DNA of 64,000 nucleotides from an uncultured Chlamydiae bacterium (GTDB lineage Bacteria > Chlamydiota > Chlamydiia > Chlamydiales > JAJFMB01): assembly GCA_963696295.1 (NCBI GenBank), contig CAVOJR010000001.1, positions 3,040,001 to 3,104,000 on the forward strand, in the 5' to 3' direction. Position numbers and translations under genes: made by a program. Positions 9,460 to 37,759 of the stretch are shown in pieces; position 1 is the stretch's first letter, and each line of letters begins with the position of its first letter. The notes below the pieces were generated by a model. That model was given only the letters and a program-made list of their open reading frames with translations, had not been told where the DNA came from and did not search any database.

Positions 9460-10373
9460 TCCAGCCCTTTTTCAATCAGGAACAAGGCTGCTTCGTTGCT
9501 CATGACCTGGTCTAGAAACTTCATTTGAAAATCTGCGATTTCCCGAACATATACCGGTTTTGCATGTTCGATAGCCGTATAATGAACGCCAATATATTCG
9601 ATGCCGTCCCTTGAGAGACTTTCCAGCTCCTCAACATTTTTTCTTTTATCATCGATGAAGACGATTTTTTTGGGTTTTTTGTTGATGTGAGCGAGAAACG
9701 GCTCAAAAATATCAATTTTTTTATTAAAATCACCGACGAATAAAATGCCTTGAGTATAGAGCGTCGGGGTCGAAGAAGGGATGCTGAAGCTCTCTTTTGA
9801 AGGGGCGGTTGCGCTGAAGTCGAAGCCGAGAGAGGCGACTTGCCTTAAGGTAGAATCGATAACCGATGGCTGCCTGTGGGTCAACCCCATAATGACTACG
9901 CCTCTTTCTTGCAGTTGTAAAAGAGAAGGGACAAATTCCTCTTCCAAAGGTTTGACGCGGCTCGCTTTTTGCGTTTTAATCCAACCCGGATAGACGGCGC
10001 GAATGCCTTCTTCCCGGCTCATGCCCGCCTGCATCTTTTGCTGCAGTACATCATAGAACCAGTTGGCATGCCCCAGGGCTTGCGCCCCCTCGAAGAGGCA
10101 ATTATCCAGATCGACGAGGAACCAAGTCTCATTGTCGATCAGAGGGGTAACCTCTTCGATAAAGCGTGTTTCGACAATTTTCGCCTCCACAACGGATAAT
10201 GCGAGGAAAAAAACAGCCAATTTTATATACCCAAACAACCTCAAAATTTGGGATTTCGGCTTTGCCAAAGCCCCGGGATTCAACGATCGTAAACAGGTCC
10301 ATATTGACCTGTTTACGATCGATTGAATCGCGGGAGCTTTTGCTTTGCCGAAAACCGGTATAAATAAGCGCAT
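9456..10373 (-). CDS. DUF2608-like secreted HAD-fold protein, with an in-frame palindromic element in its signal peptide
   Basis: DLDNCL, GLTHR, IVFIDDK HAD motifs. ATG 10373 lies 1 nt after the upstream NUDIX stop. Confidence 0.8.
   Translation of the reverse strand: MRLFIPVFGKAKAPAIQSIVNRSIWTCLRSLNPGALAKPKSQILRLFGYIKLAVFFLALSVVEAKIVETRFIEEVTPLIDNETWFLVDLDNCLFEGAQALGHANWFYDVLQQKMQAGMSREEGIRAVYPGWIKTQKASRVKPLEEEFVPSLLQLQERGVVIMGLTHRQPSVIDSTLRQVASLGFDFSATAPSKESFSIPSSTPTLYTQGILFVGDFNKKIDIFEPFLAHINKKPKKIVFIDDKRKNVEELESLSRDGIEYIGVHYTAIEHAKPVYVREIADFQMKFLDQVMSNEAALFLIEKGLD
10226..10362. mobile_element. Palindromic MITE/RPE-like element with TA-flanked ends, in frame in the DUF2608-like gene
   Basis: TATACCCAAACAAC...CCGGTATA; perfect 16-bp inverted repeat 10284-10299/10306-10321; net 135 bp. 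Confidence 0.8.
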
Positions 10374-10374
10374 A

Positions 10375-10872
10375 CTATTTTGTTATTGATTTTGTGTTAT
10401 TACCATTTCTCCATTCGATATAATCGCTCAAAACTTGAGCGTGATCAAAAGCGAGCTCTTTCCATGGAATATCTTCCAGCTTAACAACGAACGCTTTTGC
10501 CGCATCATCGCCGGCCGTTGGCAGCTGATACGCTTTTGCCGTGTGAGCGACTTCCACCGAATGGTGCCTGAAGTCTCTTGCGGGATCGGAATAGACATGA
10601 AATTGTTTCAGGTCGGCAAGTTCCAGGTTAACTTCTTCCTTCATCTCCCTTCTGACGGCGTTTTCCACAGTCTCGCCATATTCCACCTTGCCTCCGGGAA
10701 TTGCCTTGCCGAAGGGCTCTTTGCCCCGTTCAATCAATACAATACCGAGGAATTGCCCCTCTTTATGGATCTCAATAATAGCAGTCGTAGTTAGGATCGG
10801 GGGCTTATGGGCCGCCAGGGGTGCGAGCACCAGAAAAAAAATAATACAAAAGAAATTGAAACTTCTTTTCAT
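10375..10872 (-). CDS. NUDIX hydrolase with predicted signal peptide
   Basis: PGGKVEYGETVENAVRREMKEEVNL Nudix box, SDPARD, LAFDH; N-terminus MKRSFNFFCIIFFLVLAPLAA. Confidence 0.9.
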   Translation of the reverse strand: MKRSFNFFCIIFFLVLAPLAAHKPPILTTTAIIEIHKEGQFLGIVLIERGKEPFGKAIPGGKVEYGETVENAVRREMKEEVNLELADLKQFHVYSDPARDFRHHSVEVAHTAKAYQLPTAGDDAAKAFVVKLEDIPWKELAFDHAQVLSDYIEWRNGNNTKSITK

Positions 10873-10941
10873 AATAAATCCTCATTTTAAGGGGAAAATT
10901 TTACCAAAAATAGGCAAATGGTGTCAAAGGAAAGCCATTTT

Positions 10942-11289
10942 TTACTTGCCTCCTAAACCTCTTGTGTCATAGAAGAGCTCAATCTTTGAGATGAGTCCTT
11001 CTCGAAAGCTCAATAGAGAAGCCGCCTGCAAATTTTTGGAAAGGCCGGGAATTTCTACCTCATAGACAATCATCGCTTGATCCTCTGAACCAAATTTGGC
11101 GCGGATTGTCAGAGTCTTAAAAATACCTGTAAATCCCTTCGCCGCTTTGAGGACCGCTTCTCTGCCGATTACTTTTTCCTGTGGATCGGTAAATTGAATA
11201 TCAGGGTGCAAATATTTTTTCACCTCTTCGATGTTTTTCTCTCCAAGAGCCGTGTAATAAGCTGCGCCTATAGCCTTTGTATCCATCAT
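10942..11289 (-). CDS. SnoaL/NTF2-like protein
   Basis: LHPDIQFTDP, GREAV, GLISKIELFYD pattern. Confidence 0.8.
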   Translation of the reverse strand: MMDTKAIGAAYYTALGEKNIEEVKKYLHPDIQFTDPQEKVIGREAVLKAAKGFTGIFKTLTIRAKFGSEDQAMIVYEVEIPGLSKNLQAASLLSFREGLISKIELFYDTRGLGGK

Positions 11290-11301
11290 CGTCTCCTCTG
11301 T

Positions 11302-11346
11302 TTGACAATCAAAATTGATTATAGTAGACTATATTCATTAAGTCAA
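11302..11346. promoter_or_regulatory. Overlapping divergent promoters with palindromic TetR-type operator
   Basis: Plus strand TTGACA(11302)-17-TAGACT; minus strand TTGACT-18-TATAAT; palindrome TATAGT-AG-ACTATA at 11320-11333. Confidence 0.65.
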
Positions 11347-11348
11347 TA

Positions 11349-11984
11349 GTGAGTTATATGTCAGAAATCAAAAAAAGACCTTACAAGTCAATATCCAGGA
11401 AGACTCAAGCAGCGCAAACAAGAGGCCGGATTCTTGGCGCTGCGAAAGACCTCTTTGAATCAGAGGGGTTTGAGTGTGTAACAATTGAAAAAATTGCTCA
11501 AGCCGCGGACGTTTCAATACCCACCATCTACTCGCTCTTTCAATCTAAGCGCGGCGTGCTTCGCGCCTTAATGGATGAGGCCCTTCCCGCGGATCAGTTC
11601 GAAGCCCTTGTAGAAAGGAGCATAAAGGCGAAATCGCCGCAAGAGCGCCTCCGTTTTTCAGCTAAAATCGCCCGTCAGATGTACGACGCTGAGAGGGCGC
11701 AAATGGATATTTTTCGAGGCGCAGCTGTTTTGGCTCCTGAGTTCAAAGAGCTCGAAAAAGAAAAAGAGATGCGCCGTTATAATCGGCAGGAAGTGACCAT
11801 AAAAGCGATGGCCAGGGAAAAATCCCTAGCGAAGGGGCTTAGCCAAACCAGGGCACGAGACATCTTATGGGCTTTTACCGGGCGCGATATGTATCGGATG
11901 TTTGTGGTAGAACAAGCATGGACATCTGAGGAATATGAGAAGTGGCTGGCACAGTTGCTCATCCGCACCTTGGTGGGTGAATAG
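11349..11984 (+). CDS. TetR/AcrR family transcriptional regulator
   Basis: ILGAAKDLF..GF..VTIEKIAQAADVSIPTIYSLF.SK HTH. Confidence 0.92.
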   Translation: MSYMSEIKKRPYKSISRKTQAAQTRGRILGAAKDLFESEGFECVTIEKIAQAADVSIPTIYSLFQSKRGVLRALMDEALPADQFEALVERSIKAKSPQERLRFSAKIARQMYDAERAQMDIFRGAAVLAPEFKELEKEKEMRRYNRQEVTIKAMAREKSLAKGLSQTRARDILWAFTGRDMYRMFVVEQAWTSEEYEKWLAQLLIRTLVGE

Positions 11985-11989
11985 TCTCT

Positions 11990-13486
11990 TCAAAAAGTTT
12001 TCAGCTTGGGAAATTTAGACCAGAGATGTTCATGTTCCTCAGAAGCTTGAAGCAGCCGAAAGCGCGAATTGCAGGCTCTTTCCGTTCGAACTACTATGTT
12101 GCCCTGGCTTAACTCTGCTGCCACTTTTGCCCAAACGATATGCTTTTCATGCATCCGTTTCTGAATGAGGGTGAGAAGCTGCCTATCTTCCTGATGGCTC
12201 CAACCCGGAAATTTTTTTGTCGCTTTGTACGCCGCTGCGGCTTTTAGTTTAGAACCTTGCAACACTTTATAGCGCGCAACACACGCCGTTCGACTGCGGA
12301 AAATGCCCTTGTGATGGAGTGCCTCCCGCAATTCCTCTGCCACTTTCTGCCACCCGATCAGAACCGATTTTTTCCCCTTCACGATATTTAGCAACTGATG
12401 ATCTTCCTTAGGCGTCCAAAAATTGTATTGAGCCTGCTTTGCCGCTTCTGCTGGAGGTTCGGTGGTTTGCCTATTCCTCTTTTCAGTGGCAGGGGCTGTT
12501 GTATTATCGGCAAGGGCGGTCAGCTCTTTCAACAAGCCTGGGCCCCTCTGCGCGGGAGGAGCCGACGCAAGGGAAACCCGTTTCTTCATTTCAGTGATAG
12601 GAGCTGCTGCACCATCGGCAAGGGCGGTCAGCTCTTTCAACAAGCCTTGGCCCCTCTGCGCGGGAGGAGCTGACGCAAGGGAAACCCGTTTCTTCATTTC
12701 AGTGATAGGAGCTGCTGCACCATCGGCAAGGGCGGCCAGCTCTTTCAACAAGCCTGAGCCCCTCTGCCTGGGAGGAGCTGACGCAAGGGAAACCCGTTTC
12801 TTCATTTCAGTGATAGGAGCTGCTGTACCATCGGCAAGGGCGGCCAGCTCTTTCAACAAGCCTGAGCCCCTCTGCCTGGGAGGAGCTGACGCAAGGGAAA
12901 CCCGTTTCTTCATTTCAGTGATAGGAGCTGCTGCACCATCGGCTAGAGCCGCCAGCTCTTTCAACAAGCCTGAGCCCCTCTGCCTGGGAGGAGCTGACAC
13001 AAGGGAAACCCGTTTCTTCATTTCAGTGATAGGAGCTGCTGTACCATCGGCTAGGGCCAACAAGCCTGAGCCCCTCGTCGGTTTGGCGGGAGTGGGCTCC
13101 TGAATTGGAGGGAGTGCCGCGGCCGGAGGCGCTGAATCATGTATTAAATATAAATCGACAGGGTCTTGTAAAGGGTCGCATAGGCCGCCCTCCTCTTCCC
13201 GCTTAAGGCTTGCCATAGATAAACTAGGATACTCGATATCCTCAAACAGTATGATTTCATTATTCCCGTTTGGAAAATCATGAGAATTAAGGGCATGATA
13301 GACATTCATCGGCGGCATGGGGTATAGGTTTTGTTGCCGGCCAAAATCTGTCCGAGCCGCCCAACCGTTGTGATTCTGCTGCAGGGCATACGAGGCAAGA
13401 TTTTGTTGCAAATAAAAATCTTGCTTTTCATCCCCTGTTGACTGGGAGTAATCTCTCGGATTGAATTTTCCTGCGTCGACTTGCAT
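11990..13486 (-). CDS. Repeat protein with two C-terminal Myb/SANT-like domains, candidate effector
   Basis: WTPKEDHQLL...W.KVA..L...RS..AC..RY and WSHQEDRQLL...WAKVA..L...RT..AC..RF; central 36-aa repeats. Confidence 0.7.
   Translation of the reverse strand: MQVDAGKFNPRDYSQSTGDEKQDFYLQQNLASYALQQNHNGWAARTDFGRQQNLYPMPPMNVYHALNSHDFPNGNNEIILFEDIEYPSLSMASLKREEEGGLCDPLQDPVDLYLIHDSAPPAAALPPIQEPTPAKPTRGSGLLALADGTAAPITEMKKRVSLVSAPPRQRGSGLLKELAALADGAAAPITEMKKRVSLASAPPRQRGSGLLKELAALADGTAAPITEMKKRVSLASAPPRQRGSGLLKELAALADGAAAPITEMKKRVSLASAPPAQRGQGLLKELTALADGAAAPITEMKKRVSLASAPPAQRGPGLLKELTALADNTTAPATEKRNRQTTEPPAEAAKQAQYNFWTPKEDHQLLNIVKGKKSVLIGWQKVAEELREALHHKGIFRSRTACVARYKVLQGSKLKAAAAYKATKKFPGWSHQEDRQLLTLIQKRMHEKHIVWAKVAAELSQGNIVVRTERACNSRFRLLQASEEHEHLWSKFPKLKTF
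12480..13075 (-). repeat. About 5.5 tandem copies of a 108-bp coding repeat
   Basis: GSGLLKELAALADGAAAPITEMKKRVSLASAPPRQR repeated; DNA period 108. Confidence 0.95.
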
Positions 13487-13808
13487 CTTAAATCAATAAA
13501 GTGTTTTTGTGGCAGGATATTAACACAGGCTGATATTAATAATCTAATTAAAAACAGAGGGCAGCGGCGGTATACTATTATTGGAGTCGAGGCAACTATT
13601 GTCGTCAAGAGAGGGTCTGCTTTAGGCAAGCCCTCCTCAGGGATAATTAGAGTTTAAAATCATTAATTAATTTTACAAGCTGGAGGGCAATCCGCTGTAA
13701 TGGTCAGAGCGCTCCGTGCAGTTCAGAGATTCTTTTTTTGAACGTCAAAGCTCCCGGGGTAAGTAACAGCTTGAATATATCTATACATATATGTTATTAT
13801 CTATCTAA

Positions 13809-14420
13809 ATGGATAGATTTCTTAAGATCGGCGAAGCCGCTAAAATATTAGGATGCAGCATAACAACCCTTAGGAGATGGGAAAAAGGTGGAACTCTTTT
13901 GCCCGATCGAAAAACAAAAGGAGGAACTCGCTACTACTCTCAGGGGAAGTTAATCAAAAAAAACCACCTCGAAACTGAATTGACATTGGGTTATGCGCGT
14001 GTATCCAGTCACGATCAAAAAGAGGATTTAGAACGGCAAAAAGAGGTACTTGCTTCATTTTGCCTGAAAAATGGATGGACATATGAAATCATAGCAGACC
14101 TCGGATCTGGGATGAATTATCGAAAAAAGGGACTTAAAACCCTTTTAGATGCCATTTTGGAAATAAAAATAAGGCGTTTAGTAGTTACACATAAAGATAG
14201 ACTGCTCAGATTTGGTGCAGAACTTATCTTTGCTCTCTGCGAAAACAAACAGATCGAAGTAGTGATCATTAATCAAGGGGAAGAAACCTCTTTTGAAGAG
14301 GAGCTCACCAAAGATGTCCTTGAAATTATTACTGTGTTTTCTGCAAGGTACGGAGCTAGAAGCCGGAAGAATAAAAAACTGATAGAAGCTGCAAAAATCC
14401 TGATTGATGATAGCCCCTGA
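13809..14420 (+). CDS. tnpA: IS607 family transposase (MerR-like HTH + serine recombinase)
   Basis: EAAKILG.SITTLRRWE, YARVSSHDQKEDLERQ, DRLLRFG. Confidence 0.95.
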   Translation: MDRFLKIGEAAKILGCSITTLRRWEKGGTLLPDRKTKGGTRYYSQGKLIKKNHLETELTLGYARVSSHDQKEDLERQKEVLASFCLKNGWTYEIIADLGSGMNYRKKGLKTLLDAILEIKIRRLVVTHKDRLLRFGAELIFALCENKQIEVVIINQGEETSFEEELTKDVLEIITVFSARYGARSRKNKKLIEAAKILIDDSP

Positions 14421-15925
14421 TGAGCAACATTACCTATCAAACACGCCTCAATCTTCTTGAAGACTCCTCCCAAAAATTGGGAGAATACGCTTTTTTATCG
14501 ACCAAAGTAAAACATCATCTCTTTAAAGACCTGATATTGAAGAAGGATCGCAATGAATTAAAGCGATCTTATTTGAAGGCGTTTAAAATTACAGCTCGTC
14601 AATATAATGCCTGCCTTGTGGAAGTCGAAGGAAAAATTGCCTCTATCATTGAGAGGACAAAAGTAAGGATTACTGAACTAAGCGAACAGATCAATTCTTT
14701 AAAAAAAACAATAAACAAATTCAAAAGGGATAAACACAAACTCCATAATAAAAAGAGGAAATTGCACAGTCTCGAGAATAAGATTAAACAACTTAAAAGC
14801 GATCTTAAAAATGGAAAAATACGCCTTTGTTTCGGTGGAAAGAGACTTTTCCATTCCCAATTTCATTTACATGAAAATGGTTACGCTTCTCATCAGGACT
14901 GGAAGCAGGATTGGGATAAGCAAAGAAATTCGGAATTCTTTGTTTTGGGATCCAAAGAGGAGACAGCCGGAAACCAGACATGTACTGCGAAAATCAATGA
15001 AGACGGCTCTTTTGATTTGCGCCTTAGACTTCCTGATGTGCTCCAGGAAAATGGCAAATACCTCATTATCCCTAATGTGCGTTTCAAATATGGACATGAC
15101 GTTATTCTTTCAAGTTTAAGATCTTGCCTCGAAAGAAAAAGCAGTGGTGATAAGTCGTTTGGAGTTGCTATCTCCTACCGATTTAAAAAAGACAAAAAAG
15201 GGTGGATACTCTTTCTAACAACCTCTCGAGCTCAACCGGAAAAGGTAACAAAAGAGGGTATAGGAGCCATTGGAGTCGATATTAATGCCAACCATTTGGC
15301 CTTCGCCGAGACAGATCGATTCGGGAATATCATCAATAAAGGAGTTCTCCCCTTAAATACTTATGGAAAGGACAAAAACCAAACTTTAGCTGTTATTGGG
15401 GATGTCTCTGCTCTGTTAGTTTCATTGGCAGTCGAAACAAAAAAGCCGATCATTCTTGAAAAGTTAGATTTTCAAAAGAAGAAGATGACTCTTAAAGAAG
15501 AGTCCAGCAAAAAGCAATCGAGACTCCTTTCCTCTTTTTGCTATCGAAAAATTCTTGAGCGATTGCAGTCAAGAGCCTGGGCGTCCGGTGTGAGTTGTTA
15601 TCTGGTCAATCCGGCTTTTACCTCGATAATCGGTTTTGTTAAATTTTCAAATAGGTACGGACTTTCAACACATCAAGCGGCGGCATTTTGTATTGCACGC
15701 CGCTATTTAGGATTTTCTGAAGAACCTCCCAAAGCCATATGTAAAATATCTGACGGCAAAAACTCCCAGGTCACTTTACGCCTACCTGTAAGGAATCGGC
15801 GCAAACATGTCTGGGTTGTTTGGGGATTAGTAAAACGGAAAGTACGAGTGGCGCTTGCAGCGCATTTCCAAACGATAAATAGTCGATCCTCTGATCCTCC
15901 TTTAAAAAATCGGTCAGTGAGATAG
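14420..15925 (+). CDS. tnpB: Long TnpB-related RuvC protein of the IS607 element
   Basis: IGVDIN (RuvC-I), IILEKL (RuvC-II), VNPAFTS, GLSTHQAAAFCIARR; translationally coupled to tnpA. Confidence 0.82.
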   Translation: MSNITYQTRLNLLEDSSQKLGEYAFLSTKVKHHLFKDLILKKDRNELKRSYLKAFKITARQYNACLVEVEGKIASIIERTKVRITELSEQINSLKKTINKFKRDKHKLHNKKRKLHSLENKIKQLKSDLKNGKIRLCFGGKRLFHSQFHLHENGYASHQDWKQDWDKQRNSEFFVLGSKEETAGNQTCTAKINEDGSFDLRLRLPDVLQENGKYLIIPNVRFKYGHDVILSSLRSCLERKSSGDKSFGVAISYRFKKDKKGWILFLTTSRAQPEKVTKEGIGAIGVDINANHLAFAETDRFGNIINKGVLPLNTYGKDKNQTLAVIGDVSALLVSLAVETKKPIILEKLDFQKKKMTLKEESSKKQSRLLSSFCYRKILERLQSRAWASGVSCYLVNPAFTSIIGFVKFSNRYGLSTHQAAAFCIARRYLGFSEEPPKAICKISDGKNSQVTLRLPVRNRRKHVWVVWGLVKRKVRVALAAHFQTINSRSSDPPLKNRSVR

Positions 15926-16237
15926 TATTTTTGGAAATTGTTGGTGAGATTCCAGCACACGAATCGTTAGCAAAACTGCTTGGCTGGCGTTCTCTCCTTT
16001 CTTCTCTTAAATGAGCAGATTTGGATAGATATTTAGGAGCGGTTTGAACATTGATTAATACAACCTTCCGATCTTCAAACCGCGGGGCTTTCACGCCAAA
16101 AAAAGTTTTAAAAGTTAAATGCCCAAAAAAAATATGGTAAAACGTAACATTTAGGCTCATTTATAACAACAGGAAAATGGCTATAAGATAGTAATTGAAA
16201 TAAATCATTAATTACAGTATTGTTTATTAAAAAACAG

Positions 16238-17215
16238 ATGGATTCTAAAATGGATATAAATAATTTAATTACCAACTCGATTTTTAACCCGGTTGCACCG
16301 AACTATAATTCAGTGTCTGATTTTAGAGATTTAAGTATACAAAATCGGATGATAACCATTTTTCTCACCTTTTTAGCAACGGTTGCTTCCCTGCCGATTT
16401 TAGGTTTAGGAGGTGTAGCTGCTTTTAGGGTCTTAGTTAATAATTTTTCTGCAAAAAAACTAGCTAAAGGCGATGATCCAAAGGTCGATAAAGTCACTGA
16501 TGTTGCCATTAAGATGATAGACCCTTCTAAAACAAAAAAAGACATTCTTGAGTTTATAAATAGAAATTATCAAGTAAAATACAAAAGTCCAAGCTTAGAA
16601 AATATAGAAGATGCTGAAATTTTTCTTTTGGATGATTTAACAGAGGAACAAAGACGCCTGAATTGCTTGTTTATCGATAGTTTTGCTGAGGAAGGAAGTG
16701 CATTGATGTTAGAGTCTGTTCCGGCTAATGAAGAAGTTGCCGCACTTCATCTTCAGGATAAATATTTAAAAAAGCCTATTAAAAGAGTGGGATGGGATTT
16801 AAGTGATAAAGAATTACATCATTTTACAGATAAAGGGGCCCAATTATTTGCAAAAACCCTTGAGCTATCTTGTAAAAAGCAACTGTTGCTTGATTTGAAT
16901 AAAGCAGTAGAAGCACAGCGGCTGCGTGACAAAATAGTTGCATTAACGGAAGAACTTTTAGCTTTAGAACCTGAATTTGTTCCCAATCTTCATGAGCATA
17001 TGGTTCAGAGCCATCCAAAAAGGGCTCAAAAATTGATGGAAACCCTAATAAAACAGGAAACAGAGGCAGGGCCGGGAAAAAGATTGTTTCTTATAGCGGG
17101 AAGCAAGCATCTTTTTAAAATTCAACCTAGTCTGGGGAATGACATTCATATTAATACGCTGCATGATTTTTTGAAATCGCGAAAAGCCGTGATTCTTTCC
17201 TCAGAAAAGAATTAA
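16238..17215 (+). CDS. Hypothetical protein, candidate effector (N-terminal hydrophobic segment + possible EreA/ChaN-like domain)
   Basis: Hydrophobic ITIFLTFLATVASLPILGLGGVAAF; LMLES, GWD, LFLIAGSKHL motifs; AT-rich. Confidence 0.55.
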   Translation: MDSKMDINNLITNSIFNPVAPNYNSVSDFRDLSIQNRMITIFLTFLATVASLPILGLGGVAAFRVLVNNFSAKKLAKGDDPKVDKVTDVAIKMIDPSKTKKDILEFINRNYQVKYKSPSLENIEDAEIFLLDDLTEEQRRLNCLFIDSFAEEGSALMLESVPANEEVAALHLQDKYLKKPIKRVGWDLSDKELHHFTDKGAQLFAKTLELSCKKQLLLDLNKAVEAQRLRDKIVALTEELLALEPEFVPNLHEHMVQSHPKRAQKLMETLIKQETEAGPGKRLFLIAGSKHLFKIQPSLGNDIHINTLHDFLKSRKAVILSSEKN

Positions 17216-17637
17216 ATAAGTCCAACCACCTGCGTGCGGATATATTTCATTTCGTGAGGTGAATGCGTTCTTTCATAGAATTGTTTTGTCATGTCTGTAC
17301 CGGCATTACTAAGAAAGATCTGGTTAGCCCCGGGATGATGCAGCTTAGTGATGATTTCGGAGACATTCAGCACACAATTGTCTACCACGACATAGCAATC
17401 TGTAGGGGTTTTATGCTTTTGAATTTCTTCCCAGGAAATCTTTGGTTTCCTCGCTAATTCTTCCGTGTACAGATCCCCGGCTTTGTATTGCTTGTCCTGT
17501 TTATCTTCGTTTTTTTGGTATGTCTTTCCAAAAATGGCGATTGCCCCAAGAGCCAAAATTAGCGGCGCTGCCAAAGCCCCTCCGCCCAATCGGTTCATCC
17601 CCCAATTCATCTCTGTAATAGACGATATAGCACTCAT
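17212..17637 (-). CDS. Cytochrome b5-like heme-binding protein with N-terminal membrane anchor
   Basis: ISWEEIQKH..DCYVVV..VLNV..HHPGA..AGTDMT..FY..HS; GGAGG SD. Confidence 0.85.
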   Translation of the reverse strand: MSAISSITEMNWGMNRLGGGALAAPLILALGAIAIFGKTYQKNEDKQDKQYKAGDLYTEELARKPKISWEEIQKHKTPTDCYVVVDNCVLNVSEIITKLHHPGANQIFLSNAGTDMTKQFYERTHSPHEMKYIRTQVVGLI

Positions 17638-28436: not shown

Positions 28437-30644
28437 ATGACAAGAAAGAGAAAAAAAGCGAACCAAAAGGCTCCTCCCGAGCATAAGACGGAGCAGAAAA
28501 TAGCGAAGGGAAAGCGTTTTCAGGCTCTTTTCAAATTAACAAAAAATCATTTGACAGATAACTTTTACCAGCCCTCCACTAGGGAAGAGCTCGAAGAGGA
28601 TTTAGAGGTCCCGATTCACCATAAAGAAATTTTCGCGGCAGTGCTGGAGTCTTTAGCCGAGCAGCAAATGGTGGAAGTCAAAGGGGAAAAGTATTTTCAA
28701 AAGAAGATTAAGCAAGACACCGTGACAGGCGTCATCCGCATGCACCCGCGCGGATTCGGCTTTGTGCAGCCCGAGCAGACCGATCTTTATTCTCAAGATA
28801 TCTTTATACCAAAGCCCTACACCCAAAATGCCGTCGACGGAGACCGGGTGGAAATTGTCGTCCATCCCGAGCTTTTGTCTCCGAAGGGCCCTGAAGGGAA
28901 AGTCGTTGCCATCCTCTCGCGAGGGAGAACCCATGTCGCCGGCATCATCCACGGCAAAGACAACTACAACAACATGCTGGCTTATGTGCCCATTTTAGGC
29001 ACCGACCAGGCCGTGATTGTCGAACCCTGGGCCGAACGCGCGCTAAAAGTGGGCGACCGCCTAGTCATGGAAGTGATCGAGTGGGGCGGCGAGGACGCTT
29101 GCACCGTCTGCAAAGTAGACCGCTACCTCGGCCATATTTCAGATGCCTCGTGCGATGTGAAGGCGGCGATCGAAGAGTATAACTTGCGCTCCGAATTTCC
29201 CGCGCCGGTCATTAAAGAGGCCAAGAAAATCGGCTCCCGCGTCTCTGTCAAGGATCTGGAAGGGCGTGAAGATTTGCGCGATATCGAGAGTTTTACGATC
29301 GACCCGACCACGGCCAAAGATTTTGATGACGCTCTCTCTTTAAGCAAAGACAGCCGCGGCCATTACCACTTGCTGGTGCATATCGCCGACGTCTCCCACT
29401 ATGTGAAAAAAGATTCTCCCGTCGATATGGAAGCGAAGCAGCGCTGCAATTCGACCTATTTCCCCGGCATCTGCGTGCCGATGCTCCCGCCGGAACTCTC
29501 GGAAAACCTGTGCAGCTTGAAACCGAAGGTCAACCGGCTGGTCGTCACCGTGTTTATGGAGATAGATAAAGAGGGAAATTTGCTCCAATACCGGATCGCC
29601 CGCTCCGTGATTAAAAGCGCCAAGCGCTTCACTTATCACGAAGCCAAGGAGGTCTTGGACGGCTTGAAAAAAAGCGTTCACGCCCCGACGCTCCACCTGA
29701 TGGTGGAACTTTGCCATCTGCTGAAGCGGAAGCGGTTTGAGCGGGGCAGCATCGAATTTGTCCTGCCCGAGATGCGGATCAATGTCGAAGAGGATGGAAG
29801 CCCCGTCGGCACAGAGGTTATCCACTACGATATCACCCACCAGCTGGTGGAAGAGTTTATGCTCAAAGCGAACGAAATTGTCGCGACCCACCTTTGCGAA
29901 AAGGGAATTCCGGTCGCTTTTCGCATCCACGACAGGCCGGCCGAGGATAATTTGCGCGACTTCGCCATCTTAGCCGGCGCTTTTGGCTTTAAATTGTCGG
30001 AAACCCCCACGCAAGTCGAGCTGCAAAACCTCTTCAACGAAGCGTTGGATACCGAATATGGGCAATATTTGGCGACGAGCTACATCCGGCGCATGCGCCT
30101 CGCCCTCTACTCTCCCGACAACATCGGCCACTACGGTTTGAGTTTGAGCCACTACTGCCACTTCACGAGCCCCATCCGCCGCTATGCCGACCTTTTGATC
30201 CACCGGGCGCTTTTTGGGGAAGTTTTCGATAAAGAAAGCCTTGAGGTGATCACCAATTACTGCTCCGAACAAGAGCGGATCAGCAGCAAAGCGGAAAACA
30301 GCGTGATTCTGCTGAAGAAATTGAGGCTTTTAGCCGCTATATTAAAGAAAGAGCCGAATAAAGTGTATACGGCCGTGATTACGCGCGTTCGCAATTTCGG
30401 CATTTTCTTCGAGATTCTGGACTACATGCTGGAAGGCTTCTTTTCCCTCTCTGATCTGCACAACGATTATTATGTCTACCAGCATGACAAAGAGGTGCTT
30501 TTCGGGACCCATACCGAAACGAGCATTAAGGCCGGAGACCGGATCGAAGTGGTTTTAAAGTATGTCGATTTTATCACGTTAGAGAGCCGTTGGAATTTAA
30601 ACGAAAAAGAGAACAGCTATAAAAAACGGAAAAAATACCGATGA
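28437..30644 (+). CDS. rnr: Ribonuclease R
   Basis: HPRGFGFV, TIDPTTAKDFDDA, HFTSPIRRYADL, C-terminal S1 domain. Confidence 0.96.
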   Translation: MTRKRKKANQKAPPEHKTEQKIAKGKRFQALFKLTKNHLTDNFYQPSTREELEEDLEVPIHHKEIFAAVLESLAEQQMVEVKGEKYFQKKIKQDTVTGVIRMHPRGFGFVQPEQTDLYSQDIFIPKPYTQNAVDGDRVEIVVHPELLSPKGPEGKVVAILSRGRTHVAGIIHGKDNYNNMLAYVPILGTDQAVIVEPWAERALKVGDRLVMEVIEWGGEDACTVCKVDRYLGHISDASCDVKAAIEEYNLRSEFPAPVIKEAKKIGSRVSVKDLEGREDLRDIESFTIDPTTAKDFDDALSLSKDSRGHYHLLVHIADVSHYVKKDSPVDMEAKQRCNSTYFPGICVPMLPPELSENLCSLKPKVNRLVVTVFMEIDKEGNLLQYRIARSVIKSAKRFTYHEAKEVLDGLKKSVHAPTLHLMVELCHLLKRKRFERGSIEFVLPEMRINVEEDGSPVGTEVIHYDITHQLVEEFMLKANEIVATHLCEKGIPVAFRIHDRPAEDNLRDFAILAGAFGFKLSETPTQVELQNLFNEALDTEYGQYLATSYIRRMRLALYSPDNIGHYGLSLSHYCHFTSPIRRYADLLIHRALFGEVFDKESLEVITNYCSEQERISSKAENSVILLKKLRLLAAILKKEPNKVYTAVITRVRNFGIFFEILDYMLEGFFSLSDLHNDYYVYQHDKEVLFGTHTETSIKAGDRIEVVLKYVDFITLESRWNLNEKENSYKKRKKYR

Positions 30645-31339
30645 GAAAATACTTTCTGGCCGGCCTGGTCATTTTGCTGCCGCTCGCCCTGACCATCATT
30701 GTCGTGCTGTTTGTTTTCAACCTGTTGACTAAGCCCTTCGTCGATGTCCTCCACTCCTTCTTTAATTACTATGGAGTCCTGCAAAACGGCTTTCTTATTT
30801 TCAGCGCTGAGCAAGTGCGGCAGGTGATCAGCCAGATCATCATCTTCGCTCTCCTCTTCTTCTTTACCGTCTTTGTCGGAATGCTGGGCCGCTGGTATTT
30901 GACAAACTCGCTGATCAAAATGTGGGACTATGTTTTCCATCGCATCCCGATTATCCGGACCGTTTACAAAACGTGCCAGGAGGTGATCAACACCATTTTC
31001 GCCACCAAGACAAAGTCGTTTAAGCAGGTGGTGATGGTCCCCTTTCCCGACGCAAACACCTACAGCATCGGTTTAGTCACTCAGGAGAACATCCCCAATC
31101 TGACCAAAAAAAGCTACGAAGGACTCACGGCTGTCTTTGTGCCGACCACTCCGAACCCTACCTCCGGATTTCTGATGATGTTCCAGGAGAAAGACCTGAT
31201 CCATCTCGATATGACGATTGAAGAGGCGTTCAAGTATATCATTTCCTGCGGCGTCATCCCATCCCCCTTTCGGGAAATCTCGAAAGAGAAAGCGCAAGAG
31301 ATCAGCGCTCAAGATGAAGATGAGGAGTTTCAATTATGA
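30641..31339 (+). CDS. DUF502 family membrane protein
   Basis: FLAGL..LLP..LT, RIP....Y, VFVPTTPNPTSGF. Confidence 0.9.
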   Translation: MRKYFLAGLVILLPLALTIIVVLFVFNLLTKPFVDVLHSFFNYYGVLQNGFLIFSAEQVRQVISQIIIFALLFFFTVFVGMLGRWYLTNSLIKMWDYVFHRIPIIRTVYKTCQEVINTIFATKTKSFKQVVMVPFPDANTYSIGLVTQENIPNLTKKSYEGLTAVFVPTTPNPTSGFLMMFQEKDLIHLDMTIEEAFKYIISCGVIPSPFREISKEKAQEISAQDEDEEFQL

Positions 31340-31995
31340 GGAAGTACTTTTTCACCGGGCTCGGCATCATCCTGCCGATAGTGCTCACGGTGCTCATTAT
31401 CTCCTTTTTGATTAATCTGCTGACGAAACCCTTTCTTGGCATGGCGCAAAGCGTGCTGGAGTATTACGGACTGCTTGGCAAATCCCTTTTTTTCATGAAA
31501 ACCGACCAGCTCGTGCTGATCACAAGCAAACTCATCGTCTTGGCCCTCTTGACCCTATTAACCATCATTATCGGCTTGCTGGCCCGCTTGGTTTTTGTGC
31601 ATTACCTGTTCCGGACGGGCGACTATATTATCCATCGAATTCCGATCGTCAACAAAATCTACCGGTCGATTAAGGAAGTCGTTTCCACCCTTTTCGATTC
31701 CACCGAGCAAAATTTTTCCCAGGTTGTGCTCGTGCCTTTTCCCCATTCTCAGGGCCTGGCGCTTGGGATGGTGGTCAAAGACCGCCTGCCGGAAGAGTCT
31801 GATAAAGCTTATGGGGAACTGCTGTCGGTGTTTGTGCCTGCCACGCCGAATCCGACCATGGGATTCATGCTTCTTTACAAAAGAGAGGATGTTAATTTTA
31901 TCGACATGTCGGTGGAAGACGCGCTGAAATGCATCGTCTCCTGCGGCGTCATGTTTACCGATAGAGGGAAGGGCGATGAAAATCCACTTTCTTGA
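31336..31995 (+). CDS. DUF502 family membrane protein (tandem paralog)
   Basis: VFVPATPNPTMGF; similar to the preceding gene. Confidence 0.9.
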   Translation: MRKYFFTGLGIILPIVLTVLIISFLINLLTKPFLGMAQSVLEYYGLLGKSLFFMKTDQLVLITSKLIVLALLTLLTIIIGLLARLVFVHYLFRTGDYIIHRIPIVNKIYRSIKEVVSTLFDSTEQNFSQVVLVPFPHSQGLALGMVVKDRLPEESDKAYGELLSVFVPATPNPTMGFMLLYKREDVNFIDMSVEDALKCIVSCGVMFTDRGKGDENPLS

Positions 31996-32368
31996 AGTGC
32001 TGGACAACCAGACGAAAATGCGCAAGCTCTGCGAAACGATTCAGCACCACTACCAGCTGGGCCATGCCATCCTCGTCACCGTCGCGAGCGACGAGGTGGG
32101 GCGCTATGTCGACGAACTCCTGTGGCGCCATCCGAAAGAAAGCTTTCTGCCCCATCAGATCGCTTCAAGCAAAGTCTCTTGCAAAATCGCCATCACAGAG
32201 CGGCAGGAGAATTTGAACAAAGCCAGCGTGCTCTTCAATTTATGCCCGCAGGCCAGCCCCATCTGCCAGCAATTCCAAACAGTCTATGAGTTTCTCGACA
32301 AAACCCATCCCGACCGCACGCGCCAATCCCTTGAGCGGCAGGAGGCCTACCGCAAAATGGGCTACTGA
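31976..32368 (+). CDS. holC: DNA polymerase III subunit chi
   Basis: DELLW....SFLPH, R..Y...GY. Confidence 0.85.
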   Translation: MKIHFLEVLDNQTKMRKLCETIQHHYQLGHAILVTVASDEVGRYVDELLWRHPKESFLPHQIASSKVSCKIAITERQENLNKASVLFNLCPQASPICQQFQTVYEFLDKTHPDRTRQSLERQEAYRKMGY

Positions 32369-32372
32369 TTTA

Positions 32373-32438
32373 TTTTCGTCCACTTGGTATTTTGGAGCGA
32401 GTCCGCCGGTCGCAGCCCGAAATGCCACCGGACGAAAT
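32373..32438. repeat. Intergenic hairpin related to the palindromic element family
   Basis: TTTTCGTCC...TGGTATTTTGG...CCGAAATGCCA..GGACGAAA. Confidence 0.55.
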
Positions 32439-32480
32439 TAAAACAGTTCCCCAAAATGGAACTGGCGATCGATTAGAAGT

Positions 32481-32870
32481 TTAATTGATTTTAGCCCCGC
32501 CGGCTGCCAGGTCAAGCCCCGCATTAAACACTAAAGAAGTGGCTAGAATAATTGCGTTAATTTTCATCAAATCTCTGTTTGAAAGAGCCGAAGTAGCGGC
32601 ATACATTTTTGCCCCGGCAACGAGGGAACCTACAGCTGCTAATACTTGGTTAGCATTTATCCCTTGGAATTTCATTTCAGGGATAATGTAATATATGATT
32701 CTCCAGGCTGTATTTGAAACGGCGTAGCTGGCTCCGGCAGCCAAAGGATTTAACCCGGCTGAGATTTCTAAAGCCATTACAGCGTGTGCCCCTAGAAAAC
32801 CTGCAACTTGATCTTGAATAATGAATGTTGGATTACTTATCTGTTTAAGATCACGTATTATAGTCGACAT
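32481..32870 (-). CDS. Hydrophobic hypothetical protein (one copy of a ~125-aa domain)
   Basis: ISNP..Q..GFLGA.AV..L.I..G.NPLAAGA; K.YAATSALS. Confidence 0.7.
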   Translation of the reverse strand: MSTIIRDLKQISNPTFIIQDQVAGFLGAHAVMALEISAGLNPLAAGASYAVSNTAWRIIYYIIPEMKFQGINANQVLAAVGSLVAGAKMYAATSALSNRDLMKINAIILATSLVFNAGLDLAAGGAKIN

Positions 32871-32877
32871 GAAAGCC

Positions 32878-33666
32878 TCATTTTTTAGTTACTTTCTCTG
32901 GGGCGGCGAAACCCAGCAGCAAATTTATCGCTAAAGAGGAAAGTAGAATGCCTGCGTTAATTTTCCTCAACTCTACGGTTGAAAGGGCGGAAGTCGCCGT
33001 ATACATTTTTACCCCGGCAACAAGGCTGGCTGTACCGGCTAAGATCCTCGTTAAATCTATTCCTTTAAATTTAACCTGAGGGACAAAACTACCAAAGATT
33101 CTAACGGTAGCTCCAGAAGCGGCAAAAGCGGCTCCTGCAGCCAGGGAATTCACTCCGGCCAAGATTCCTAAGTCCGCTACAGCACGTGCTCCAAGAAAAC
33201 CAGAAGCTTGATTTGTAATAACATTAATTGGATGAGCTATAATTTGACATTGGTGAATAGTAGTTCTAACTGGTGGAGTAGGTGATTGTTTTTTTTCTTG
33301 TTTCGGGCCCAGCACCAAGTTTATTGCTATAGAAGAGAGTAGAATGGCTCCGTTAATTTTCAGCAATTCTCTGCTTGAAAGAGCCGAAGTAGCGGCATAC
33401 AATTTTGCACCGGCAGCGAGTCCGGCTCCAGTGACTAAAATCCGCGTTAAATTAATTTCTTTAAATTTAACCATAGGGACAAAGTTCGCTAGGAGTCTAA
33501 TGGTTGCTTCAAAAGCGGCATTAGCGGCTCCCGCGGCCAGGGGATTCACTCCTGACGAGATTCCTAAGTCAGCTACTGCACGTGCTCCAAGAAAACCAGA
33601 AGCTTGATTTGAAAAAACGGTAATCGGATTAGAAATATTATTGCATTTATCAATTATAGTAGACAT
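32878..33666 (-). CDS. Hydrophobic hypothetical protein (two copies of the same domain)
   Basis: NQASGFLGARAVADLGI occurs twice. Confidence 0.75.
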   Translation of the reverse strand: MSTIIDKCNNISNPITVFSNQASGFLGARAVADLGISSGVNPLAAGAANAAFEATIRLLANFVPMVKFKEINLTRILVTGAGLAAGAKLYAATSALSSRELLKINGAILLSSIAINLVLGPKQEKKQSPTPPVRTTIHQCQIIAHPINVITNQASGFLGARAVADLGILAGVNSLAAGAAFAASGATVRIFGSFVPQVKFKGIDLTRILAGTASLVAGVKMYTATSALSTVELRKINAGILLSSLAINLLLGFAAPEKVTKK

Positions 33667-33729
33667 AAAACCTCATCATTAATAGTTTATATAATATAAG
33701 CGATTGTAAAGTTTCAGTCAACGATAATT

Positions 33730-35049
33730 TTATTTTGAAAGATTGTTGTGGTTTTCCCTGGCGACCAATTCACTTTCGGGTTCATTGGCGTCTATAAAGG
33801 TTTCGTTATTCAGATGAGCTTTCAGCTTCTCCTGATTCACCTCGCCGCACCATTTGCCAACGACGATGGCGGCTACGCCGTTGCCGATCAAATTGGTGAT
33901 GGCTCTCGCTTCCGACATAAAGCGGTCAATCCCTAAAATGAGGGCCAGGCCGGCGACCGGGACCGATCCAACGGCCGCGAGCGTGCCGGCTAAAACGACA
34001 AATCCCCCACCCGTTACGGCCGCGGCCCCTTTGGATGTGAGCAATAGAATCATGAGTATGACAAACTGCTCGGAATAGCTGAGCGGCGTATTGGTCGCCT
34101 GGGCGATAAAAACAGTCGCCATGGTTAAGTAGATTGCCGTGCCATCCAAATTAAAGGTATAGCCCGTCGGGATCACGAGACCCACCACCGATTTATCCAC
34201 CCCCAGATTGACGAACTTGGCAAGGAGGCGCGGCAGTACGGATTCGGAAGAGGAAGTCCCAAGCACAATGAAAATTTCCTCTTTCAGGTATTTGATCAGC
34301 TTCCAGATGCTGAAGCCATGCAAATAGGCGATCAACCCCAGCACGGCAAAGATAAAAGTAAGGCAAGTGAGGTAGAAAGCCGCCATGAGCTGTGCGAGGG
34401 GCAAAAGGGTGCCGAAGCCATACTTGCCCACCGTAAAAGCCACCGATCCAAAAACCCCAACAGGGGCAAAACGCATGATGATGGCAACGATTCCGAAAAA
34501 GACATGTGAAAGCTTTTCGATAAAGTCGACAATCAATTGCCCGTGCGCGCCGGCCGCATGCAAGGCAAACCCAAAGAGCAAGGCAATCAGCATCACCTGA
34601 AGAATATCCCCCTTGGCGAAGGCATCCACAAAAGCATTAGGAATGATATGCAAAAGAAAAGCGGACGGGGATTCCATTTTTTCTGCCGTCGTATAGACTT
34701 CCACGCTTTTCTTATCCAGCGTGGAGGGATCAATATTCATGCCTGCACCGGGCTGCAGTAAATTCACCAGAACCAGCCCTAAGAGCAGGGCGCATAGACT
34801 CACAATTTCAAAATATATCAGCGCGAAACCGAGCGTTTTGCCGATCAGTTTCATGTTTTTCATGCCGACAATGCCCAAGACCACGGTGCAAAAGATAATC
34901 GGCGCGACAATCATTTTGATCAATTTGATGAAGGCGTCGCCGAAGGGCTTCATGGCAACCGCCGCATCGGGATAAAACACTCCAAAAAATATCCCGATCA
35001 AAAAGGCTATTACCACCTGAAGATAAAGGTGTTTCAAAACAAACCTCAT
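33730..35049 (-). CDS. dctA: C4-dicarboxylate:cation symporter
   Basis: [42 protein letters not shown]. Confidence 0.95.
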
Positions 35050-35096
35050 TTAAAACTGAGATTAGTTAGAACATCTTTTTCGTGCAATTGAAATGA

Positions 35097-35432
35097 TCAC
35101 CCTTTTATGATCTCATTAAGCTTGTTGAAATGCTTCTTGAAATCCCAATTTGTCTCCTCAGAAAGGATGGCGAGCTTTCGCACCCCGTCGGGATCTTGCA
35201 GGAAGTAATGGAGTATGCCAGCGACATGCTCCTTTATCTCGGAAGAGATGAAGAAGGAAGCCCCAAATGTATGGATCAGACCAAGCGCCTGGTTTGCCTG
35301 CTTTGTGATGGTTTGCACCGATCTGATGAGCTCCGGGGACAAGGTTTTAGGATCGTCAGTGGCGGCCATCTCGATTTTAAAGCGATCGAAATCAGATAAG
35401 GCCTCTTTTATAGCTGCATTAATATCAAACAC
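35097..35432 (-). CDS. Hypothetical protein
   Basis: GTG start with GGAGG SD and an upstream promoter. Confidence 0.6.
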   Translation of the reverse strand: MFDINAAIKEALSDFDRFKIEMAATDDPKTLSPELIRSVQTITKQANQALGLIHTFGASFFISSEIKEHVAGILHYFLQDPDGVRKLAILSEETNWDFKKHFNKLNEIIKG

Positions 35433-35465
35433 TTAAGTCACCTCCCCTTTTACCCTCTTAACCTC

Positions 35466-35494
35466 GATATAGTCGGGCCCGCCCGAAATGTCAA
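35466..35494 (-). promoter_or_regulatory. Sigma66-type promoter TTGACA-17-TATATC with GC palindrome in the spacer
   Basis: Minus strand TTGACA tttcgggcgggcccgac TATATC. Confidence 0.6.
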
Positions 35495-35497
35495 CCG

Positions 35498-35794
35498 AAC
35501 AGAAAGGAGTGGATTATAAGTATCAGAGTATCAAAAGAGCGAAGCAACTAAGTGCCATACTTGGAGATCAACAGAAAGGAGTGGATTATAAGTATCAGAG
35601 TATCAAAAGAGCGAAGCAACTATTTAGAGCCATACTTGGAGATCAACAGAAAGGAGTGGATTATAAGTATCAGAGTATCAAAAGAGCGAAGCAACTATTT
35701 AGTGCCATACTTGGAGATCAACAGAAAGGAGTGGATTATAAGTATCAGAGTATCAAAAGAGCGAAGCAACTATTTAGTGCCATACTTGGAGATC
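35498..35794. repeat. Four tandem copies of a 75-bp unit (first copy 72 bp)
   Basis: AACAGAAAGGAGTGGATTATAAGTATCAGAGTATCAAAAGAGCGAAGCAACTATTTAGTGCCATACTTGGAGATC x4. Confidence 0.95.
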
Positions 35795-37068
35795 ATTTCC
35801 TTGACCTGCTCGCTCCAGTAGGAAAATAAGAGAGACAGGTTATTCATTACTAAAAGCTTGTAGCTTTTCAGGCGGTTGAAACCTTTTGGGATAAAGCCCA
35901 AAGGCAGCTTGAAATTCATTTTCAGGGGGGGCAGCTTCGGCATTTTTATGCTTGATAGTTTCCGGCTTAAAGTCTTAAGCCCGGGAATCTCAAATTTGAA
36001 GCGGCTCAAATCGATGCGTATGTTGAATTTTAACCGGCTGAGCACCTGCGTAAGGTTTTTGCTGAAGGAAACCCTTAAGGTCTTTACAGTCTGATAAAGC
36101 ATTGAGTTCAGGAGGGCGTGCCGGCACTTGGCTGGAATTTGGGCGAGGCGTTTTCCCATTTGTCTGAAGGGATTTGCGGCTTTCTCATAGATAGTGTGAA
36201 TTTTTTGGGAGACCGAATGGACGGCAGCGGCTCCCCTTTTTTCCAGGGCTCTCCATTTGGAAACCGGAAGGGCGGCCAGGGCGCTGATCTTGGCTTTAAT
36301 CGAGCGGTTGATTTTAGCGAAGAACTTACAGGTCTTATCTATTGTTTTGTCAATGGGGTCGTTGATGCTTTTCCCGATTTTCTGAAGGCGAGCGGCAAAG
36401 GCTTGCATTTTTGAGGCAGCGGTTTTTTTCCAAAAGGCAACCTTTTGTTTCACAAGTTTCACCCCTTTAAGAGGTGCTAAGAGAATGGCGAGAAGCCTGG
36501 CCTTTATGTTTGCCTTTATTTGAGCGGCGCGAGCGGCCATTATTCCTGGTATTTTCTTAAGTTTGATGAACGGGGCGAGCAGCTGCTTTTTAAGCTTTGC
36601 GGGAAAAGCTGCGGCTTTTGCTAGGGCGCGGCTGATTTTTTCACGGATATTTTTGATGGCTTGATTGAGTCTGATAAAGGGGAGGCAGATAGCTGCCGCG
36701 ATTCTTTTGCCTGTTTTACGGGTGAGTTTTGCCAGTCTTATGAAAGGGGCCAAGGCGGCAGCTACCCATTTTGCGGCCAGCTCTTTTAGGTAATGCAGCC
36801 CTTTCTGAACTTGATGTAACCCTTTCTGAACTTTCCGGAACAACCACTGCGGGGCGGCATAAAAAAGGAAATAGAATGGGAAAACCAGGGCAAACAGGAC
36901 CCATTTCCCCCCATTGGCTATGAAGGCCAGCCTGGTTCCTTCAATCTTTACCTTTTTGGGTGCCGGTGCGACTTGGACTGGGGTTTTCCTGGCTATCGTA
37001 TTTTGCACATAATAGCGGTCCTGATAGCTGGAAAAGCGGGATATGGATTCATACGGAGAATTAGGCAT
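35770..37068 (-). CDS. Highly basic Lys/Ala-rich membrane-anchored hypothetical protein
   Basis: One hydrophobic segment (WVLFALVFPFYFLFY), then degenerate amphipathic LAPFxKL repeats. Confidence 0.7.
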   Translation of the reverse strand: MPNSPYESISRFSSYQDRYYVQNTIARKTPVQVAPAPKKVKIEGTRLAFIANGGKWVLFALVFPFYFLFYAAPQWLFRKVQKGLHQVQKGLHYLKELAAKWVAAALAPFIRLAKLTRKTGKRIAAAICLPFIRLNQAIKNIREKISRALAKAAAFPAKLKKQLLAPFIKLKKIPGIMAARAAQIKANIKARLLAILLAPLKGVKLVKQKVAFWKKTAASKMQAFAARLQKIGKSINDPIDKTIDKTCKFFAKINRSIKAKISALAALPVSKWRALEKRGAAAVHSVSQKIHTIYEKAANPFRQMGKRLAQIPAKCRHALLNSMLYQTVKTLRVSFSKNLTQVLSRLKFNIRIDLSRFKFEIPGLKTLSRKLSSIKMPKLPPLKMNFKLPLGFIPKGFNRLKSYKLLVMNNLSLLFSYWSEQVKEMISKYGTK

Positions 37069-37117
37069 ACTTTAAAGTATACCTAATTTTTGATTATATT
37101 ATCGACCTAATTCACAA

Positions 37118-37759
37118 TTACTTAACAAAAGTGATGGCTCCCCCGCCAAATCTGGCTCCGGCATTCCCGGCTGGCTGGCTGAAATCGTCCGCCTTTTCAT
37201 GCACGATCAGGGCGCGGCCGGCAATATTGTACTTGCCTCCGCTGAGAAAAATCCCCGGAACGAGCAGATCGAGGGTGGCGTTGCCATTCTCGTCGGCGGT
37301 GATGTTTCCGAAATCCCCGGCGTGGGCTTTATAGAAACCCTCTGTGACGACATAGCCGTGTTTGGTATCATTGGGATTGTAATGGGCTCCGGCGGCATTG
37401 CCATGGTCGCTGACGTCGCCATATTCGTGCACATGAAAACCGTGCTTGCCTGGGGTGAGCCCTTGCAGATTAGCAGATACTTTTAAACCCTCGGTGTTTT
37501 CCGTGAAAGTAACCACTCCGCGGACTTTGGAGTTTGAGGTTAAAGGCATGATTATGGCTCTGCCTTTTTCCAGTTTGCCGGTCTTGTGCTGCGCTTTTTC
37601 GCATCCGAACATCAGGAGCGCGATTAAAATATACCCAAATAACTTGAATAGTTTTTGTCCGGAACGAGCGACCATTGCCGATAGGCAAGGCACGAGTGAG
37701 GACGAAACGCCCAAAACCAACTCTTCAAGTTGTTTGGGTATAAATCCAAGATACCTCAT
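37118..37759 (-). CDS. sodC: Cu/Zn superoxide dismutase lipoprotein, with an in-frame element in its signal peptide
   Basis: HGFHVHEYGD, GAHYNP..KHG, HAGDFGNI, GRALIVH..DD, GNAGAR; lipobox LMFGC; GGAGG SD before ATG 37759. Confidence 0.92.
   Translation of the reverse strand: MRYLGFIPKQLEELVLGVSSSLVPCLSAMVARSGQKLFKLFGYILIALLMFGCEKAQHKTGKLEKGRAIIMPLTSNSKVRGVVTFTENTEGLKVSANLQGLTPGKHGFHVHEYGDVSDHGNAAGAHYNPNDTKHGYVVTEGFYKAHAGDFGNITADENGNATLDLLVPGIFLSGGKYNIAGRALIVHEKADDFSQPAGNAGARFGGGAITFVK
37630..37742. mobile_element. Palindromic MITE/RPE-like element with TA-flanked ends, in frame in sodC
   Basis: Terminal inverted repeats TATACCCAAATAACTTGAATAGTT / AACTCTTCAAGTTGTTTGGGTATA; net 111 bp; core recurs inverted at about 51452-51508. 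Confidence 0.85.

Follow-up and report, generated by a model that had tools for sequence, protein, structure and literature searches.

Copies of a short mobile element, a transposable element of the miniature inverted-repeat type (MITE) flanked by TA, are found in predicted bacterial signal peptides (leaders) far more often than the share of suitable sites would predict. The element is described here from a stretch of 64,000 nucleotides of an uncultured Chlamydiae bacterium (contig CAVOJR010000001.1, positions 3,040,001 to 3,104,000; the window), in which two copies interrupt the leaders of two unrelated genes, and from the whole of this genome, in which credible genes hold 13 in-frame copies, six of these within predicted signal peptides. 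Judged from sequence, this excess is real, statistically strong and replicated, and passive survival is its best explanation. We consider it probable that copies are inserted near-randomly at TA and survive in leaders, where the insert is translated and is then cut off or left as a harmless N-terminal tail. In-frame MITEs (RPE, ERIC, YPAL) are already known; a measured leader bias such as that of this TA-flanked MITE was not met with in the papers searched.

Two insertions in the window

The two copies, neither of which is assigned to a strand, stand at positions 10226-10362 (137 bp, subfamily A, a near-perfect hairpin adding 45 codons) and 37630-37742 (113 bp, subfamily B, adding 37 codons including an in-frame methionine). 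Each has TA at both borders and, with a single TA kept, adds 135 and 111 bp, respectively; the first interrupts a DUF2608 gene at its codon 4 and the second a Cu/Zn superoxide dismutase gene at its codon 6, in both cases between the start and the hydrophobic core. The positions, TA flanks and added lengths given by the original prediction, made from the letters alone, were borne out. Retaining a single TA restores the frame of conserved hosts, as a putative TA duplication would predict. When folding was compared with shuffles, z scores of -10.8 and -4.9 were obtained, and 0 of 200 shuffles equalled either copy. By deletion, the copies derive from two different subfamilies of 164 bp: with respect to the A master, the first has internal deletions of 9 and 18 bp and has lost most of one end, while the second carries deletions of 30 and 21 bp with respect to the B master. 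Substitutions against a master number 3 and 4, and three of the last twelve residues of each insert are basic. An Rfam scan of the window matched no family, and a protein search with the insert peptide matched three proteins, all from this genome.

The first host (9456-10373, minus strand, 305 aa with the insert) encodes a HAD-like DUF2608 protein; a homologue (L002; L and P numbers denote compared loci and proteins) is 72% identical, has no insert and begins with an ordinary leader. Its start codon, two bases past the stop of an upstream NUDIX gene, and the first residues of its predicted Sec signal peptide (10363-10373, minus strand) lie upstream of the insert, and the gene caller chooses this start when the insert is removed. 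The hydrophobic core and predicted cleavage site, placed by sequence and a home-made core rule, lie downstream (10182-10225, minus strand), and the leaders of homologues are similar. The second host (37118-37759, minus strand, 213 aa with the insert) is a Cu/Zn superoxide dismutase matching Pfam Sod_Cu and a predicted lipoprotein. Its GGAGG ribosome-binding site, start codon and first lipoprotein-signal residues (37743-37769, minus strand) precede the insert, and the core with the lipobox cysteine (37601-37629, minus strand; cysteine at 37601-37603) follows it. The closest homologue, P0004 (177 aa, 75% identical), has no insert and matches the empty-site form of the dismutase at 10 of the first 16 residues, and the lipobox cysteine is present also in L333, P0004-P0006 and P0008. 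By the home-made rule and by comparison with homologues, both hosts show a basic start, a hydrophobic core and a cleavage motif.

Since homologues of both hosts lack the insert, the window segments are insertions, and the upstream starts are ancestral. The original prediction had proposed that relatives be searched for empty sites and that the position of the start be checked: insert-free homologues were obtained for all four leader hosts searched, of the six in this genome, and the start lies upstream of the insert in both window genes. Gene callers may nevertheless start such genes past the insert, losing the export signal, and P0003 is such a call for the second gene. Metal-binding histidines are retained in the dismutase and in its close homologues, while the usual disulphide cysteines are missing; the lost cysteines were considered as a sign of decay, which was rejected because homologues are without them too.

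Excess of copies in leaders

The 14-bp element end occurs 53 times in this genome (G000), versus 0 times for a reversed control, and BLAST together with a motif search gave 59 loci, some of them short and doubtful, in subfamilies A and B. Both masters are complete at 164 bp, add a net 162 bp (54 codons) and are open in three of six frames each; the interior of A is one long palindrome. The A/B family has terminal inverted repeats and a stable hairpin, and is short, dispersed and present in many copies, with no transposase coding. A more sensitive profile search added 11 loci of a subfamily C, whose interior is A-like, whose ends differ and whose 172 bp shift the frame; none of these 11 loci is a credible coding copy.

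For the census, genes were called with a home-made caller (2688 genes), leaders were assigned by a hydrophobic-core rule, and frames that span a copy but lack an upstream start or a credible host were excluded from the coding copies. The six leader hosts are the DUF2608 and Cu/Zn dismutase genes, a DUF6492 protein, a glycosidase-like protein, NfeD and an unknown protein. One further copy is N-terminal but outside a leader, in a major facilitator superfamily transporter, and six are internal, in the thioesterase of a nonribosomal peptide synthetase, CoiA, HemD, CarB, one unknown protein and one plasmid protein with an uncertain start. Internal inserts of 46-54 residues were seen in CarB (C1:2393844), HemD (C1:1750879, one end lost), the thioesterase of the 5200-residue synthetase (C1:43831) and CoiA (C1:1370391).

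Leaders make up 1.4-1.9% of the frame-compatible TA sites, yet they hold six of the 13 coding copies (P about 1e-8). The excess persisted when the two discovery cases were set aside (4 of 11 in leaders, P 1e-5 to 1e-4) and under an AT-matched null for the 12 copies with both ends, where 0.29 copies were expected in leaders and 6 were observed (P 1.4e-7). Non-coding copies compared with intergenic TA sites showed no AT bias (13 copies, P 0.40). A general effect of the 5' end of genes does not account for the excess, because six of the seven N-terminal copies are in leaders, which provide 17-19% of N-terminal sites. Neither does the dispensability of certain genes, because among genes with a hydrophobic N-terminus all six copies are in the leader, which holds 1979 of 23202 TA sites (8.5%). 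When the A/B copies of this genome were each removed in turn, none was found to clearly break a gene body; two extend over the ends of genes, and in one case the frame is shifted two codons past a likely start.

The enrichment of coding copies in signal peptides, another check proposed with the original prediction, was repeated on two further sets. The first comprised loci from 16 carrier genomes, for which the bulk though not the whole of the matches was fetched (several near contig ends were skipped), and 74 collection loci, giving 285 element loci. From 38 open-frame passes, 23 were kept by eye and Pfam and 15 were dropped as upstream or spurious; four of the 23 were in leaders by the fixed rule and five by eye. 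The second set, 70 metagenome loci fetched once the rule was written, gave 68 new elements, of which 13 were in frame and one was dropped as spurious. Here, eight of 12 copies were in leaders by the rule and nine by eye, in unrelated genes, two of them on one contig. Pooling both sets, 12 of 35 copies are in leaders by the rule, with P 7e-8 even at a 5% null. L386 and L407 are neighbouring efflux lipoprotein genes on one contig with a copy in each signal peptide. At L095 a copy apparently breaks a DUF2992 gene by frameshift, and at L389 another apparently breaks an unnamed long frame. About 14 bases of an element end survive as a remnant at L132:1467-1530, where a ZnuA-type gene with a would-be TTG start seems to have them in its lipoprotein signal.

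Fate of the insert and competing explanations

Under passive survival, the element would be mobilised in trans by a TA-targeting (IS630-type) transposase and inserted at TA sites largely irrespective of genes, and gene-breaking copies would be lost by selection. In leaders, translation would proceed from the original upstream start through the insert, and the protein would be exported with an n-region longer by 26-54 residues and cleaved by signal peptidase I or II, a pre-core insert leaving with the cleaved signal. Deletions would shrink the insert over time in three-base steps, with lengths of 164, 137, 113 and 80 bp here and about 14 bp in the L132 remnant. Leaders probably let copies survive, since the inserted peptide would go with the cleaved signal or remain as an innocuous tail. 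Internalised signal sequences are reportedly processed in bacteria, to go by the titles of work by Talmadge in 1981 and Hayashi in 1985, as given among the references of PMC2114505.

That the insert is read as protein is suggested by the deletions in coding copies, the absence of subfamily C from genes and the use of frames in early leaders. The deletions called in coding copies are all multiples of three, which is partly expected from how coding copies were selected, and those in non-coding copies are mixed; each window copy carries two separate frame-keeping deletions. The original prediction had noted that both window copies share one frame, and indeed both are read in the IPK...LFGY frame, but nine of the 18 leader copies use others. 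Moreover, the length in multiples of three and the shared frame of the window copies are partly built in, because each master adds 162 bp and has that frame open. Within this genome, the more hydrophobic frame is used by five of five early-leader copies versus two of eight others (P 0.021), though its junction type is commoner in gene bodies. An apparent sorting of frames across genomes (9 of 13 versus 3 of 35, P 7e-5) was rejected as evidence, because the hydrophobic frame is closed in all 10 non-leader full-length copies checked outside this genome, and the within-genome contrast alone stands.

Several observations weigh against passive survival as formulated above. Leaders were called by a home-made rule on home-made gene calls rather than by SignalP. 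The coding copies of the first replication set are mostly outside leaders (19 of 23 by the rule), the 2% null was measured in this genome and assumed for the others, and related genomes are not independent. Of the 18 leader copies, five are placed where the hydrophobic core ends, all of them in the hydrophilic frame; there the insert would stay on the protein as a linker, leave the protein anchored or block cleavage. The idea of a safe haven put forward by the original prediction is sustained by the leader enrichment and the empty sites, but the removal of the peptide with the leader fails for these five copies, so that the refuge is the whole leader region and not only the removed piece. The hairpins of the window copies (-72 and -41 kcal/mol) begin 11-17 bases past the start codon, and predicted accessibility at +10 to +21 is lowered to 0.38 and 0.33, versus 0.58 and 0.60. 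Because hairpins so near the start codon cut predicted accessibility, lower translation of the hosts is possible, and by this modelling they probably exact some cost. Finally, restart within an element seems to occur at L328, since the copy there shifts the frame and offers a new start.

Should passive survival be right, mobile DNA has in signal peptides a refuge within genes that can be measured, here about twenty-fold above chance, and proteins whose n-regions are extended by 25-55 foreign residues would routinely be exported by bacteria. Such copies would be natural test cases for the extension tolerance of Sec and lipoprotein signals, and a route to long or new signal peptides. A bolder version, which we put forward tentatively and regard as doubtful, is that an element lineage has evolved for life within export signals, with length and open frames maintained so that host signal peptidases remove its peptide, as splicing does for inteins and introns, and with its end serving as a portable start site and n-region by which signal peptides of many phyla can be lengthened, retuned or rebuilt. 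Hints in this direction are the 47 open frames found in 40 clusters versus 21 expected from a simple shuffle, a net length in multiples of three in 19 of the 40 clusters, the coding of hydrophobic residues in every frame of the element end, and two copies that provide a ribosome-binding site.

It is unlikely, though the best placed of the rivals, that the 3' end of the element gives a new start (TTG, GTG or an internal ATG) just before the core, yielding a signal of normal length and leaving most of the insert untranslated. In-frame TTG codons are present among the last element codons in two frames, the in-frame ATG of subfamily B would yield a 24-residue lipoprotein signal in the dismutase gene, and PMC3733652, in its available text, cautions that N-terminal repeats may be extragenic through misannotation. 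At two copies of this genome (C1:1712451 and C1:1963617), where GAGG lies six bases before a start codon, restart seems real. The window copies, on the other hand, have no GAGG-type site at a usable distance before their internal starts, which are in or beside stems, and their original start is intact, as is the GGAGG of the dismutase gene. Moreover, the frame is kept by those deletions that precede the internal starts (18 and 9 bp in the first copy, 21 bp in the second), which restart would not require, and restart leaves the five core-end copies unexplained. The copy at C1:1963617-1963734 (L328) is an older A-type copy that shifts the frame two codons past the likely GTG start of a Na/Pi-cotransporter gene, and its end puts the GAGG before an in-frame GTG, a candidate new start. 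That at C1:1712451-1712514 (L326) is cut at one end, and its GAGG, which precedes the ATG of a gene predicted to have a signal peptide, is possibly a donated ribosome-binding site.

We hold it quite improbable that the mobiliser favours DNA just past the start codons of genes for exported proteins, for instance by way of AT-rich structure or of transcribed DNA tethered to the membrane. Leader sites do have AT-rich flanks (13-15 of 20 bases), but the excess remains after AT matching, weighting by flanks alters little and the flank profile over 162 sites is weak. N-terminal copies in cytoplasmic proteins (L285, L289, L403 and L068) would fit such targeting; it would, however, leave frame-breaking copies in leaders, and none was found in cleavable leaders of this genome. 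Copies are mostly intergenic.

There is little to recommend the view that the insert blocks translation or export and that its open frame is merely inherited from the master. Strong hairpins do adjoin the start codon, the hosts are mostly accessory genes, and the inserts look recent from their few substitutions, so decay is perhaps not yet visible. Nevertheless, the host frames are intact and 72-75% identical to homologues, the frame was kept through successive deletions, the bodies of the same genes are free of copies, and one leader host (L393) is a BamD-like lipoprotein. The BamD family is essential in model Gram-negative bacteria. Least credible of all is that the hairpin is removed from the RNA or bypassed by the ribosome to restore the original signal peptide: the ends pair and thereby bring the flanks together, and exact excision leaving one TA would restore the gene, but length and frame would then be irrelevant, whereas all coding copies add a net multiple of three, genes lack the frame-shifting subfamily C and early leaders of this genome prefer the hydrophobic frame.

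Distribution, mobiliser and related repeats

The element end was found in 56 of 401 genomes of the class. Complete copies are present also in records titled Vibrionaceae, Legionellales, Rickettsiales and Burkholderiales; the named carriers are mostly Chlamydiae. No match to an IS630 transposase (DDE_3, NF033545) was obtained in this genome, and none of nine IS630 loci fetched from other carriers showed matching ends (five genomes searched in all); IS630 loci from three of the four other carrier genomes have different ends wherever these are visible. One IS630 fragment adjoins an element copy, and no long element with paired ends was seen in the fetched loci. The Ssn nuclease was rejected for now as mobiliser, since the SRM motif is absent from A, B, C and the window copies. 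At C1:113074-113471 (L413), a subfamily C element without SRM contains the end of a 98-residue GIY-YIG gene, probably through chance insertion at that end; we take this small gene to resemble the common UPF0213 type.

The original prediction had rated the insertions as the best candidate for an undescribed system. This did not hold up: in-frame MITEs are established in the available text of several papers (PMC2229807, PMC2759123, PMC10969869, PMC1458961, PMC3733652, PMC3119063, PMC5771137, PMC11893778), one MITE fusion lies in what is predicted to be a signal peptide (PMC2759123), and there is no need for a dedicated mechanism. A search of the open literature, with subscription journals and supplements outside its scope, found no paper on this element family or on a measured leader bias, and the available text of PMC10969869 contains neither 'signal' nor 'Chlamyd'.

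Rickettsia palindromic elements (RPE; Ogata et al., as told in the accessible parts of PMC2229807 and PMC10969869, with counts in PMC1458961) are hairpin repeats of about 100-170 bp with open frames, and one RPE-bearing enzyme proved active (PMC2229807, PMC10969869). The family here resembles them as hairpin repeats standing in frame in unrelated genes of an intracellular bacterium, with 13 such copies in this genome, but it differs in its ends, its phylum and its consistent TA flanks. It also differs in the concentration in signal peptides measured here, which the accessible parts of the same three papers do not report for RPEs.

With ERIC, IRU and RU-1 it shares TA ends, a hairpin and occasional in-frame fusions, as described in the available portions of PMC2759123 and PMC2229807. 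Its terminal 10 bases, TATACCCAAA, are one end of the E. coli consensus printed in Table 1a of PMC2759123, and a Vibrio copy with the 14-bp ends of the family matches the 127-bp E. coli repeat at 76%. Unlike ERIC, the element measures 164 rather than 127 bp and has the class-wide range given above; its interior is not ERIC-like, since shuffles scored as well in 228 of 300 cases for A, 249 of 300 for C and 2 of 300 for B, which does better, though marginally. A window copy compared with E. coli gave no match. The YPAL/RU-2 fusion in YPO1552 is, in the text available of PMC2759123, a single case of a non-TA element read as creating a new exported protein, whereas existing leaders are interrupted here, and repeatedly.

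RUP and other IS630-related MITEs likewise have a TA target, terminal inverted repeats and no transposase gene, although RUP, in the accessible part of PMC2229807, is intergenic and has stops in all six frames, unlike the family here. An IS630-derived MITE is recognised by an IS630 element with matching ends, and none was found for this family in the five genomes searched; nor does it show the SRM motif and neighbouring Ssn nuclease that mark Ssn-associated repeats (NTS/SRM). The extended signal peptides of autotransporters (PMC2805444, as far as its available text goes) are also very long N-terminal signals that still use Sec, but their extensions are conserved domains, whereas those here are recent mobile inserts.

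A third subfamily B copy lies in the window at 51438-51554 (no strand assigned); it is intergenic and one-ended, and is followed by a lone end-like motif at 51645-51654. Fragments of subfamily C were seen at 13733-13762 and 16039-16110. Elsewhere in this genome, tandem amplification of element ends and parts was observed at C1:2629574-2629849 and 2884245-2884640. An HC2 histone-like gene was found among the Pfam matches and, like the mostly chlamydial named carriers, points to a chlamydial genome, and abundant 16-mers (20-34 copies) unrelated to the element resemble a collagen-like coding repeat.

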